From sequence record LR597660: a stretch of 64,000 bases of DNA; one strand, given 5' to 3'. The translations under genes were made by a program, and so were the position numbers. Origin of the DNA: Escherichia phage T4_ev151. The notes beneath the pieces were generated by a model, which saw nothing but the letters and a program-made list of their open reading frames with translations, made no database searches and was not told the DNA's origin. Below, piece by piece: positions 426 through 63,966 of the stretch (its first letter is position 1; the number at the start of each line of letters is the position of its first letter).

Positions 426-446
426 TCCTATTTACTCCAAGTAATA

Positions 447-460
447 GGGGCCGAAGCCCC
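447..460 (-). terminator. GC stem-loop GGGGC-UUCG-GCCCC on the minus-strand transcript, after the 467..1060 gene
   Basis: Perfect 5-bp GC stem with UUCG tetraloop read on the minus strand; no clear U-run, so may act as an RNA stability hairpin rather than a terminator. Confidence 0.45.
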
Positions 461-466
461 TTATCA

Positions 467-9278: not shown

Positions 9279-9286
9279 TATAAATA
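9279..9286 (+). promoter_or_regulatory. T4 late promoter TATAAATA for gene 53
   Basis: Exact TATAAATA about 28 nt upstream of the gene 53 ATG in the divergent 4/53 intergenic region. Confidence 0.6.
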
Positions 9287-9293
9287 GATAATA

Positions 9294-9301
9294 TATTTAT
9301 A
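9294..9301 (-). promoter_or_regulatory. T4 late promoter TATAAATA (minus strand) for gene 4
   Basis: Exact TATAAATA on the minus strand about 27 nt upstream of the gene 4 ATG. Confidence 0.6.
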
Positions 9302-40107: not shown

Positions 40108-40122
40108 TCTTTGACGATTTAA

Positions 40123-40140
40123 GGGACCTTCGGGTCCCTT
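40123..40140 (+). terminator. hairpin GGGACC-UUCG-GGUCCC followed by U-run after gene 23
   Basis: 6-bp GC stem with UUCG tetraloop then TTTAGTTGTTTTT, 15 nt after the gene 23 stop. Confidence 0.65.
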
Positions 40141-42998: not shown

Positions 42999-43067
42999 GT
43001 TATCGAGTTGGTGCCATTATATACATCATTTTCTGAGTGTGTTTTGTGTGCTTTCAAAATGAAGAAA

Positions 43068-43081
43068 GGGGCCGAAGCCCC
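43068..43081 (-). terminator. GC stem-loop GGGGC-UUCG-GCCCC on the minus-strand transcript after hoc
   Basis: Same 14-nt element as at 447..460 and 63072..63085; 7 nt after the hoc stop. Confidence 0.5.
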
Positions 43082-43087
43082 TTATGA

Positions 43088-45484: not shown

Positions 45485-45498
45485 AATATTTCCTCAGT

Positions 45499-45506
45499 AT
45501 AAATAT
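45499..45506 (+). promoter_or_regulatory. T4 late promoter TATAAATA upstream of the GIY-YIG gene
   Basis: Exact TATAAATA 28 nt upstream of the ATG at 45534. Confidence 0.5.
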
Positions 45507-46153: not shown

Positions 46154-47662
46154 ATGGATATTAAAGTACATTTTCACGACTTCAGCCATGTACGCATCGA
46201 TTGTGAAGAGAGCACGTTCCACGAATTAAGAGATTTCTTTTCGTTTGAGGCCGATGGATATAGGTTTAATCCTCGCTTCAGATATGGCAACTGGGATGGA
46301 CGAATCCGTCTTTTAGATTATAATCGTCTTCTTCCATTTGGCTTGGTCGGGCAAATTAAAAAGTTCTGTGATAACTTTGGCTATAAAGCCTGGATTGACC
46401 CACAAATTAACGAAAAAGAAGAATTATCAAGAAAAGATTTTGATGAATGGCTTTCTAAATTAGAAATCTATTCAGGAAATAAAAGAATTGAACCACACTG
46501 GTATCAAAAAGATGCAGTGTTCGAAGGATTAGTTAATCGTCGTAGAATTCTTAATCTTCCAACATCTGCAGGTAAATCGTTAATTCAAGCTCTGCTTGCT
46601 CGGTATTATTTGGAAAATTATGAAGGTAAAATTCTTATCATTGTTCCAACAACTGCTCTAACAACTCAGATGGCTGATGACTTCGTTGACTATCGTTTAT
46701 TCAGTCATGCAATGATAAAGAAAATTGGTGGCGGAGCATCAAAAGATGATAAATATAAAAATGATGCACCAGTCGTTGTTGGTACATGGCAAACTGTAGT
46801 AAAACAACCGAAAGAATGGTTCTCACAGTTTGGAATGATGATGAATGATGAATGCCATCTTGCTACAGGAAAAAGTATTTCATCTATCATATCAGGTTTA
46901 AATAACTGCATGTTCAAATTTGGTCTATCTGGTTCATTACGTGATGGCAAAGCCAATATCATGCAGTATGTTGGAATGTTTGGTGAAATATTTAAGCCAG
47001 TAACGACTTCTAAGTTAATGGAAGATGGACAAGTAACTGAGCTAAAAATTAATAGTATTTTTCTTCGCTATCCCGATGAGTTCACTACTAAATTAAAGGG
47101 AAAAACTTATCAAGAAGAAATAAAAATTATTACTGGGCTCAGTAAAAGAAATAAATGGATCGCTAAATTAGCTATTAAGCTTGCGCAAAAAGATGAAAAC
47201 GCTTTTGTCATGTTTAAACATGTATCGCACGGTAAAGCTATTTTCGATTTAATTAAAAATGAATACGATAAAGTTTATTACGTATCAGGGGAAGTTGATA
47301 CCGAAACCCGCAATATAATGAAAACTTTAGCTGAAAATGGTAAAGGAATAATTATAGTAGCTAGTTATGGTGTATTTTCTACTGGTATTTCAGTTAAAAA
47401 TCTACATCACGTTGTTTTAGCGCACGGTGTTAAATCAAAAATCATTGTATTACAAACAATCGGTCGTGTATTACGTAAGCATGGTTCTAAGACAATAGCA
47501 ACAGTCTGGGACCTCATAGATGATTGTGGTGTTAAGCCAAAATCTGCTAATACGAAAAAGAAATATGTTCATTTGAACTATCTTTTAAAACACGGCATTG
47601 ATCGTATTCAGCGCTACGCAGATGAAAAATTTAATTACGTAATGAAAACAGTTAATTTATAA
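46154..47662 (+). CDS. uvsW: UvsW helicase (SF2 DNA/RNA helicase)
   Basis: 502 aa; Walker A TSAGKS; DEAH-like DECH box; synteny. Confidence 0.9.
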   Translation: MDIKVHFHDFSHVRIDCEESTFHELRDFFSFEADGYRFNPRFRYGNWDGRIRLLDYNRLLPFGLVGQIKKFCDNFGYKAWIDPQINEKEELSRKDFDEWLSKLEIYSGNKRIEPHWYQKDAVFEGLVNRRRILNLPTSAGKSLIQALLARYYLENYEGKILIIVPTTALTTQMADDFVDYRLFSHAMIKKIGGGASKDDKYKNDAPVVVGTWQTVVKQPKEWFSQFGMMMNDECHLATGKSISSIISGLNNCMFKFGLSGSLRDGKANIMQYVGMFGEIFKPVTTSKLMEDGQVTELKINSIFLRYPDEFTTKLKGKTYQEEIKIITGLSKRNKWIAKLAIKLAQKDENAFVMFKHVSHGKAIFDLIKNEYDKVYYVSGEVDTETRNIMKTLAENGKGIIIVASYGVFSTGISVKNLHHVVLAHGVKSKIIVLQTIGRVLRKHGSKTIATVWDLIDDCGVKPKSANTKKKYVHLNYLLKHGIDRIQRYADEKFNYVMKTVNL

Positions 47663-47674
47663 GGGCTTCGGCCC
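47663..47674 (+). terminator. hairpin GGGC-UUCG-GCCC between uvsW and uvsW.1
   Basis: 4-bp GC stem with UUCG tetraloop immediately after the uvsW stop; no U-run. Confidence 0.4.
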
Positions 47675-47687
47675 TTTGGAGAAAAAG

Positions 47688-47921
47688 ATGTTACTAGAAT
47701 TTAAACAATTTCTTTATGAAGCTTCTATTGATGAATTTATGGGTAAAATTGCCTCTTGTCAAACATTAGAAGGTTTAGAAGAACTTGAAGCTTATTATAA
47801 GAAAAGAGTTAAAGAAACTGAATTAAAAGATACTGATGACATCTCTGTGAGAGATGCTTTGGCAGGAAAAAGAGCTGAATTAGAAGATTCAGACGATGAT
47901 GAAGTAGAAGAAAGTTTTTAA
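47688..47921 (+). CDS. uvsW.1: UvsW.1 small acidic protein
   Basis: ATG at 47688 preceded by GGAGAAAAAG; 77 aa; the track ORF starts at a TTG 12 nt upstream. Confidence 0.6.
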   Translation: MLLEFKQFLYEASIDEFMGKIASCQTLEGLEELEAYYKKRVKETELKDTDDISVRDALAGKRAELEDSDDDEVEESF

Positions 47922-47976
47922 ATAAAAAAGGCCCAACCAAAAAGGAAGGGCCAAAACTATAGACTAAAGGTCACAC

Positions 47977-48973: not shown

Positions 48974-49372
48974 TTATACTCTATTACTGGAAGCCAGTTG
49001 CAGTTTTATCTGCTCAATATCATCGGGGTTATCGATGACCGAAAAGCGTATTTCTACTATCAGAGTATAATCATCATAAACCGGTATTACATTAACTGCT
49101 AATTTATCAATACGTGGCTCATAGTTTCTTACTGCGCTTTCGATGTTACGCTCAACCGTATCAGCAGTAAGAGGAGTCATATTTTCAAAAAGCTGATCTG
49201 ATAAATCACATCCAAATTCAGGGTCAAATGGTCTTGAACCTTTTCTTGTTGTAATAATTCCTAAAAGACTGTTTTTAATTGACCTTAATCCAAGCGATCT
49301 GGAAACGTCTTTGTTCCAATCCATTTTCATTTCCGGGTCAATGTCAGAATAAAGCTTATTAATATTTGACAT
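48974..49372 (-). CDS. 25: gp25 baseplate wedge protein (LysM-like fold)
   Basis: 132 aa as T4 gp25; synteny. Confidence 0.9.
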   Translation of the reverse strand: MSNINKLYSDIDPEMKMDWNKDVSRSLGLRSIKNSLLGIITTRKGSRPFDPEFGCDLSDQLFENMTPLTADTVERNIESAVRNYEPRIDKLAVNVIPVYDDYTLIVEIRFSVIDNPDDIEQIKLQLASSNRV

Positions 49373-49998
49373 TATAGTAACTCAAAGAACTCTTTGAGGC
49401 CTCTTATTACGTGAGCATGGGTTTTTCCACACTCTGGACACTTAATTGGAACAGCCAAATAAACGGTAGGTTTTAAAAGCATATCTTTTATAGCTACAAT
49501 ATCTGACTCTGTGATGATAGAATATAAATCTTCTAGTTCCTTTTCATTTAAGTCTTCAACTGGAATGCTTTCCCCGTTAGCATGAATCGTTTCTATGCAT
49601 GATACTATCATGTGGGCTATATTTTTATCATCAAAAATTTTAGGGTATCGGAATTTAATTTTAATGTCACCCAGTGTATACCAGAGGTCTTCTGGTGCAT
49701 CTATTTGTGTATGTAATAGATTTATATGGGTTGGTATTTCAGTTCCACAGGTGCACTTCCAGGAGTTTTCGTGATTAACTTCACCGAGAGAATGTGCCCA
49801 TAAATGAATCAACAATAGTTCTGATTCTTGGCGGTTTAAATCTTTTGCATTTGTGCAGTCTTTGATTAGCTTTTTAACAATTACTTCTACGGAACCATTA
49901 TTTTTGGCAGTAATAAGTTCTAGATATTCTTTAAGCGTGAATGCGCGACAATTGATTATTTTAGAACCAACTCTCACATCAAATTTGTATTCATACAT
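49372..49998 (-). CDS. 26: gp26 baseplate hub protein
   Basis: 208 aa as T4 gp26; synteny. Confidence 0.85.
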
Positions 49999-50020
49999 AT
50001 TTAGCTCCTTTATTTATCAT

Positions 50021-50032
50021 ATTTATAAATAG
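50021..50032. promoter_or_regulatory. overlapping divergent T4 late promoters (TATTTATAAATA) for gene 26 (minus) and gene 51 (plus)
   Basis: TATAAATA reads on both strands within a 12-nt palindrome-like element in the 26/51 intergenic region. Confidence 0.55.
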
Positions 50033-56639: not shown

Positions 56640-57025
56640 CTATAACACAACACGAGGGACTTGTAAACTACATTTTGAACTTTTTAGTACGCGTAATAGG
56701 CATGCGTCGATTTTATACTGTTTCATTGTTTGAAGAGCAGTATCAAAAACAGCATTAATGACACCAATTGGATTTCCACCCAAGTTTTTAAGCTTAACTA
56801 ATGATAGTTTCTCATTAACACCTATCATTACGATATGCATCATTTTGTCGCCTGGTTTAACGTTTTATCTGTATCACCGCCAGAGGTGTATGTACAAAAT
56901 CTAAATCCAGGAAGCACGCTTTCTTCGCCGGCTTGAATAGCAAAAATTTGTGGTATTTTATGCTTAGGATTTAAGTTAACAACCGGCGCCGAAGCGCCGT
57001 CAAATAATTCTGTAATAAGTTCCAT
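56640..57025 (-). pseudogene. decayed duplicate of the alt N-terminal region (two frameshifted fragments, first retains the capsid-targeting sequence)
   Basis: Fragment 1 (56840..57025) MELITELFDGASAPVVNLNPKHKIPQIFAIQAGEESVLPGFRFCTYTSGGDTDK aligns to Alt residues 1-55; fragment 2 (56640..56843) MMHIVMIGVNEK...KQYKIDACLLRVLKS aligns to the following Alt residues; a 1-nt deletion relative to alt at the junction. Confidence 0.65.
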
Positions 57026-59147: not shown

Positions 59148-59152
59148 AAATT

Positions 59153-59170
59153 AAAGGCCCGAAGGCCTTT
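59153..59170 (-). terminator. hairpin GGCC-UUCG-GGCC (extended AAAGGCC...GGCCUUU) on the minus-strand transcript
   Basis: GC stem with UUCG tetraloop and flanking A/U runs, after the small ORF and before the alt promoter. Confidence 0.5.
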
Positions 59171-59357
59171 AATAATCTATTGGTAAGAGAGTACGATATA
59201 TTTCAAACTTTGGACCTTTTTCATAAGCATCAAAAGTTTCTGTGAATTTATTATAAGCATATGCATCTATAAATTCAATCATGATTTGTGATACAGAAGT
59301 AGAAACATCTCCACCTTCTTTTTGAGCCACGACAATTGTTTCTAAGTAAGCTTTCAT
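59169..59357 (-). CDS. small hypothetical protein between ligase and alt
   Basis: 62-aa ORF whose start overlaps the ligase stop. Confidence 0.45.
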   Translation of the reverse strand: MKAYLETIVVAQKEGGDVSTSVSQIMIEFIDAYAYNKFTETFDAYEKGPKFEIYRTLLPIDY

Positions 59358-63054: not shown

Positions 63055-63071
63055 AATATTTTCCTCAGTAA

Positions 63072-63085
63072 GGGGCCGAAGCCCC
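63072..63085 (-). terminator. GC stem-loop GGGGC-UUCG-GCCCC on the minus-strand transcript
   Basis: Third copy of the identical 14-nt element, between the 63095..63460 stop and the next start. Confidence 0.5.
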
Positions 63086-63094
63086 TGTTTTATT

Positions 63095-63946: not shown

Positions 63947-63966
63947 AGGACTCCCGAAGGAGTCCT
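63947..63966 (-). terminator. hairpin AGGACUCC-UUCG-GGAGUCCU on the minus-strand transcript
   Basis: 8-bp stem with UUCG tetraloop and flanking A/U runs, upstream of the early promoter. Confidence 0.5.

Follow-up and report, generated by a model that had tools for sequence, protein, structure and literature searches.

The uvsW-uvsW.1 junction of Escherichia phage T4_ev151: very probably an authentic boundary between two genes, with an intercistronic UUCG hairpin

In Escherichia phage T4_ev151 (sequence record LR597660), the genes uvsW and uvsW.1 are separated by a stop codon and a GC-rich hairpin with a UUCG loop, and their reading frames lie such that the loss of one base would join them. 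This raises the question of whether the locus holds two genuine genes or a single gene, interrupted by a sequencing error or joined again during translation. We analyzed the junction in a 64,000-nucleotide stretch of this DNA (the window; all positions are counted from its first letter) and consider it very probable that it is a genuine junction of two cistrons, uvsW and uvsW.1, in a phage of the T4 type (Tequatrovirus), neither a sequencing error nor a split gene. The junction is made up of the following features:

46154..47662, plus strand: uvsW, an SF2 helicase gene of 502 codons ending in ...KTVNL-TAA (from the ORF, aligned to PDB 2OCA)
47660..47662, plus strand: TAA stop codon of uvsW, identical in 476 phage records (read from the sequence and ORF)
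47646..47687, plus strand: non-coding stretch in which the uvsW.1 frame is by chance open 5' of its ATG
47661..47676, plus strand: C(UUCG)G tetraloop hairpin AAGGGC-UUCG-GCCCUU, with the core GGGC-UUCG-GCCC (GGGCTTCGGCCC) at 47663-47674 (from the sequence and RNA folding)
47678..47681, plus strand: GGAG, the Shine-Dalgarno sequence of uvsW.1, 6 nt 5' of the ATG (read from the sequence)
47688..47921, plus strand: uvsW.1, 77 amino acids, with a UvsW.1 domain (PF11637)

Within the region 47640-47700 the junction reads ...AAA ACA GTT AAT TTA TAA GGGCTTCGGCCC TTT GGAG AAAAAG ATG TTA CTA.... An earlier note, made from the sequence alone, had uvsW end at 47662 with the GGGC-UUCG-GCCC hairpin next to it, and the ORF and the position of the hairpin core agree with this. 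The note had also described the uvsW.1 frame as open from 47646 and shifted by +1 relative to uvsW, which we could confirm; the open stretch is preceded by TAA TGA at 47640-47645. Its statement that a 1-nt change would fuse the two frames holds in part. Deletion of a single base anywhere in 47643-47660 (18 positions) yields an ORF of 588 amino acids, but none of the single insertions or substitutions at the junction gives a uvsW-uvsW.1 fusion. Fusion by deletion is possible because the uvsW.1 frame happens to be open at 47646..47687, and these 14 open codons 5' of the ATG are unremarkable as a chance event. The deletion result is one of two points in favor of an error at the junction of the window, with one fused ORF of about 588 amino acids as the true gene; the other is the T4 reference record, which shows such a fusion.

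Both predicted products correspond to proteins of known structure. Residues 1-502 of the UvsW encoded in the window align with residues 1-502 of PDB 2OCA (1150 bits), and this full-length match, ending at residue 502, identifies the product as the T4 UvsW SF2 helicase. The two sequences differ at two residues only, K141 versus R and C459 versus A; we take the arginine in 2OCA to be an engineered Walker A substitution. The 2OCA chain comprises 510 residues, of which the final 8 lie outside the match and are probably a tag. UvsW.1 was assigned by its match to PDB 2JPN, T4 UvsW.1 (E = 1.5e-42), by the Pfam profile PF11637 "UvsW.1 domain" (E = 5e-29, 100.6 bits, cut-off 25) and by its position as a separate ORF directly 3' of uvsW. 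Compared to T4, it carries one additional Asp, encoded by a GAT codon at 47895-47897 in the acidic C-terminal tail. In uvsW, a cluster of substitutions at 47522-47533 changes Ala459 of T4 to Cys.

A 49-nt query with the junction of the window retrieved 486 phage records, and in 476 the identity was at least 99%. These include independently resequenced T4 (T4T HM137666, KJ477684-6 and OZ209023/57), T2 and the RB series. A query of 48 nt that carries the reference version of the junction (TTTAATAAGCTTCGG) retrieved AF158101.6 and its RefSeq copy only, and these counts refute an error in the window, the second alternative offered by the earlier note: the exact junction recurs in independent records, and the old T4 record alone differs. 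Over 1.9 kb, the best match of the window is Shigella phage ESh25 (98.8%). In the corrected T4 locus (T4T HM137666: uvsW at 112688..114196, uvsW.1 at 114222..114452), the junction, stop codon, hairpin, Shine-Dalgarno sequence and start codon are identical to those of the window, UvsW likewise has 502 amino acids, and the order segE-uvsW-uvsW.1, terminator and convergent uvsY.-2 is the same. The window nevertheless represents a different Tequatrovirus isolate, with about 98% identity in uvsW and mostly synonymous changes apart from the Cys at UvsW 459 and the extra Asp codon in UvsW.1.

The reference record NC_000866.4 annotates uvsW as a single ORF of 587 amino acids (112677..114440) and itself flags "sequence discrepancies" for this section. 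NC_000866.4 and AF158101.6 contain the same locus and flanks as the window, and they are the only two records that read TTTAATAAGCTTCGG in place of TTTATAAGGGCTTCGG, a difference of one A gained and two G lost, net -1 base. This misread, which falls within the hairpin's 5' arm, removes the uvsW stop codon, breaks the arm and fuses the frames, and thereby created the spurious 587-aa fusion; compression of gel bands was probably its cause. From segE to uvsY.-2, T4T and the reference differ solely at the junction and by one GA/AG swap. The latter lies at 114045-114046 of NC_000866.4, where the reference has AG and resequenced T4 has GA, resulting in Ser458 instead of the Asp found in T4T, OZ209023 and PDB 2OCA.

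The published history of the gene runs in the same direction. Nolan et al. (2006; PMC1524935) described uvsW.1 as only recently recognized, in a region earlier taken to be the 76 C-terminal residues of UvsW. They found two ORFs in all five other T4-like genomes studied, and reported that crystallography had shown UvsW without the uvsW.1 region and that resequencing of T4 had confirmed two ORFs (PMC1524935). The report of the Mineola genome likewise regards the single uvsW gene of NC_000866 as a likely sequencing error and the 76-aa region as formerly misassigned to UvsW (PMC6486255), and each of the two cites Kerr et al. (2007, JBC 282:34392) for the correction. The suggestion in the earlier note that the two genes were later merged into one 587-aa ORF thus reverses the sequence of events, since the fused ORF came first and was split by resequencing and by the structures 2OCA and 2JPN. 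UniProt entry P20703 stands at 587 residues in a review table of 2014, and this listing may have given rise to the confusion. The evidence that the note had named against a fused gene, namely reads confirming the stop codon and a separately detected UvsW.1, exists in equivalent form in the records that share the junction and in the structures 2OCA (1-502) and 2JPN.

To see the junction in a wider context, we compared 23 IMG/VR loci, with 59 to 100% amino acid identity to the C terminus of UvsW, together with four phages from other genera in GenBank. The uvsW stop codon is found at the homologous position in all of them, following C-terminal residues such as ...TVNL, ...QIDI, ...QVDL, ...LVEL or ...KLKL. 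Where uvsW.1 is present, it is always a separate ORF, in relative frame 0, 1 or 2, and the two genes are spaced by 25, 10, 9, 7 or 2 nt or overlap by 1 nt (TAATG) or 4 nt (ATGA). The 25-nt gap with the hairpin occurs in the T4 clade and in one lineage at 85% amino acid identity (L006/L027), in which TAG replaces the in-frame TTG of the window at 47676-47678 and closes the uvsW.1 frame 5' of the ATG. One phage with 59% identity has no uvsW.1 at that position. Homologs of UvsW.1 were found in 1339 phage records; among 5.8 billion sequences they form 75 protein clusters with lengths of 52 to 96 amino acids, and none of the 75 is a natural uvsW-uvsW.1 fusion.

Two homologs stand out in their architecture. 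The longest, UvsW.1 of Enterobacteria phage vB_EcoM_IME339 (96 amino acids), contains an internal tandem duplication of 19 residues (CQTLEGLEELEAYYKKRVK repeated), so that its length is not due to an N-terminal extension. In Vibrio phage EniLVp02 (PP209424.1; 650-1537 of the extracted locus), a 295-aa protein carries the UvsW.1 domain (PF11637, E = 8e-19) at its N terminus, and its gene adjoins a DUF6267 gene rather than uvsW. The domain can therefore occur in another protein context.

In two of the loci (L004 and L005), a gene for a 230-aa HNH/NUMOD3 homing endonuclease lies between uvsW and uvsW.1. The same endonuclease, at an identity of at least 95%, is present in about 49 GenBank phage records, and the matches listed adjoin the helicase gene. 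The gene is MobE-like, with an HNH-type HHIIPR motif and NUMOD3 repeats, and spans 2100-2792 in both L004 and L005 and 401-1093 in the locus extracted from NC_054945.1. Its insertion point lies 17 nt 5' of the original uvsW stop codon; the TTG start of the endonuclease gene overlaps the new TGA of uvsW, and the endonuclease gene reuses the UUCG hairpin and the former ...KTVNL-TAA tail as its 3' end. The last 150 nt of uvsW 5' of the insertion are recoded (71% identity).

The varied spacing and frame of the two genes among clades, the endonuclease insertions and the separate protein clusters therefore exclude an error in the window. Together with the existence of 2OCA and 2JPN as separate proteins and the designation of the fusion as an error in PMC1524935 and PMC6486255, they leave the fused 588-aa gene a negligible probability. 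The first alternative of the earlier note, a real two-gene arrangement, was instead borne out by the records, the structures, the relatives and the literature. On the authentic two-gene reading, ribosomes translating the UvsW message would stop at the UAA after Leu502, and a separate initiation event, 25 nt further downstream at the GGAG and ATG of uvsW.1, would give the 77-aa UvsW.1. The sequence implies this course of translation, and the relatives and the solved structures support it.

The gene order around the junction is that of T4, with inh, segE, uvsW and uvsW.1 followed by the convergent genes uvsY.-2, uvsY.-1 and uvsY. Two elements would frame the transcript:

45498..45505, plus strand: TATAAATA late-promoter consensus 5' of segE, the only exact plus-strand copy upstream of uvsW
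47930..47952, between the convergent uvsW.1 (plus) and uvsY.-2 (minus): GGCCC...GGGCC hairpin with folding z-scores of -3.5 and -2.9

The consensus at 45498..45505 probably drives a segE-uvsW-uvsW.1 transcript. The hairpin at 47930..47952, which is followed on the minus strand by UUUUUUAU, is the conserved terminator of the uvsW.1/uvsY.-2 pair: its counterpart in KT184308 is annotated as a terminator, and a conserved bidirectional terminator between these genes has been described (PMC1524935). In the whole window, 21 copies of TATAAATA were counted versus about 10 expected, including opposite-strand pairs that overlap at 50020-50031 and lie close together at 9279-9301. The pair at 50020-50031 is situated just past the start of a minus-strand ORF of 208 amino acids (49372..49998).

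The hairpin between uvsW and uvsW.1 is predicted to form a 6-bp stem, AAGGGC/GCCCUU, that takes in the last two bases of the uvsW stop codon. When folded in 261 nt of context, the five inner pairs reach in silico probabilities of 0.94-0.98 and the outermost 0.80, and the 16-mer has a folding energy of -8.8 kcal/mol. The folding of the surrounding 81-nt junction region is not unusual (z = -0.42); the signal is therefore the small hairpin alone. In the window as a whole, TTCG is the most frequent 4-nt loop on stems of 6 bp or more; nine perfect stems of this kind were observed versus 0.16 expected (maximum of two in 100 shuffles). Eight hairpins (about 0.2 expected) are of the C(TTCG)G type, with perfect stems of 6 to 10 bp, and all lie outside ORFs of at least 80 amino acids. 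Besides the junction hairpin, these are, all intergenic:

446-461, minus strand: C(TTCG)G hairpin
40121-40140, plus strand: C(TTCG)G hairpin
43066-43083, minus strand: C(TTCG)G hairpin
56984-56999, minus strand: C(TTCG)G hairpin
59150-59173, minus strand: C(TTCG)G hairpin
63071-63086, minus strand: C(TTCG)G hairpin
63947-63966, minus strand: C(TTCG)G hairpin

Seven of the eight C(TTCG)G hairpins are located downstream of an ORF on the same strand, in positions that range from overlapping its stop codon by a few bases to lying 29 nt past it; the UUCG loops are therefore on the mRNA. Hairpins of the CUUCGG type were reportedly discovered in T4 mRNA by Tuerk et al. in 1988. The junction hairpin belongs to this class by its loop, its C-G closing pair, its GC-rich stem and its intercistronic location on the sense strand, in a window in which such hairpins are over-represented; its stem (four GC and two AU pairs) is shorter than the 8 to 10 bp of some members. 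PMC4371310 recounts how the class was discovered in T4 mRNA and describes it as "extraordinarily stable". A core of AGGG(G)CTTCGG(C)CCCT is common to four of the eight, the junction hairpin included, and T-runs or a TATAAATA late promoter come after some of the hairpins. A search of the literature for intercistronic UUCG hairpins in phage T4 found nothing, and Rfam gave nothing at the junction, its sole hit, below threshold and due to chance, falling on the downstream terminator. In a degenerate pattern scan of IMG/VR and the GenBank records with the junction, the GGGC/GCCC stem was invariant, so that covariation is uninformative; two further hits of the pattern, in L031 and L033, were fortuitous and unrelated. 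Other clades lack the hairpin, which is therefore dispensable for the operon, and it is not needed to keep UvsW and UvsW.1 separate.

A stop codon next to a stable hairpin also brings to mind programmed recoding, in which some ribosomes would bypass the stop and hairpin or shift frame there, producing a UvsW-UvsW.1 fusion. Possible routes are a hop from UUA at 47657-59 to UUG at 47676-78, which lies in the uvsW.1 frame, and a +1 slip at A-AAA-A at 47645-48. The hop resembles the bypass in T4 gene 60, whose take-off site GGA-UAG-CCUUCGGGCUAUC has its stop inside a C(UUCG)G hairpin (features in PMC3014915); in NC_000866.4, this site was found on the minus strand (2803-2852 of the extracted locus) as GGA-TAG-CCTTCGGGCTATC and is formally uvsW-like. 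Common to both is a stop codon in the 5' arm of the tetraloop hairpin directly after the last sense codon, the presumptive take-off codon. The matched and conserved take-off and landing codons of gene 60-type bypass are, however, missing: UUA and UUG match inexactly, and L006/L027 keeps the hairpin with TAG in place of UUG and the frame closed. The gap, moreover, would be about 19 nt rather than 50 nt, nothing comparable to the nascent-peptide signal of gene 60 was found, and uvsW.1, which is equipped with a Shine-Dalgarno sequence and an ATG, exists as a protein by itself. The succession of stop codon and UUCG hairpin is also a generic arrangement in the window, as the seven cases above illustrate, and not specific to a recoding site. 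For a frameshift, A-AAA-A is the only slip-compatible sequence and is followed by no slow codon at which ribosomes would pause.

The comparative data that exclude an error in the window also argue against a conserved recoding event joining UvsW and UvsW.1. Because the hairpin is absent from other clades, in which all three relative frames occur, and because L006/L027 carries the TAG, frameshifting and bypass were rejected as conserved mechanisms. With UvsW and UvsW.1 solved as separate entities (2OCA and 2JPN), we consider programmed recoding highly improbable. The same low likelihood applies to a restricted variant, in which a weak gene 60-like take-off from UUA to UUG would yield a minor fusion in the T4 clade only, beside the two separate proteins.

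The hairpin may act on the transcript. As a partial intrinsic terminator or attenuator, it would keep expression of UvsW.1 below that of UvsW. Its very stable GC stem is followed by UUU, and three other members of the class precede T-rich runs (at 63947, 59150 and 40121). These three U are all that stands ahead of GGAG, however, and the terminator scan does not call the hairpin; measured against an intrinsic terminator, defined by a stem of at least 5 bp and then a U-run of at least 5 of 8, the tail UUUGGAGA falls short. There is also no promoter consensus between uvsW and uvsW.1, so that termination here would starve a conserved gene, and the strong conserved terminator comes after uvsW.1 instead. 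Attenuation at the junction is thus unlikely.

Alternatively, the hairpin might tune translation of uvsW.1 by insulating its ribosome-binding site or by nucleating local folding. The stem ends 1 nt 5' of GGAG, and CUUCGG hairpins were originally proposed to act by nucleation (PMC4371310). Predictions of how far 47677-47693 stays unpaired argue against such an effect, the probability being 0.576 with the hairpin, 0.65 with the hairpin deleted and 0.579 ± 0.05 with shuffled sequence, and we regard this role as quite unlikely.

For the authentic two-gene junction, we tentatively favor a different function, in which the hairpin would serve as fast-folding RNA "punctuation" that blocks 3'-to-5' exonucleases or marks the processed 3' end of the uvsW message. 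Such a barrier or end marker for the uvsW cistron, within the segE-uvsW-uvsW.1 transcript, is plausible, if somewhat short of probable.

The uvsW/uvsW.1 junction is an ordinary feature of T4-type phages that was known before, and it offers little new biology. Its value is mainly practical: the window is right at this position, while NC_000866.4 and AF158101.6 still carry the erroneous 587-aa UvsW, an error that automated annotation and human memory continue to inherit. Stable GC hairpins are spots to distrust in old Sanger-era sequences.
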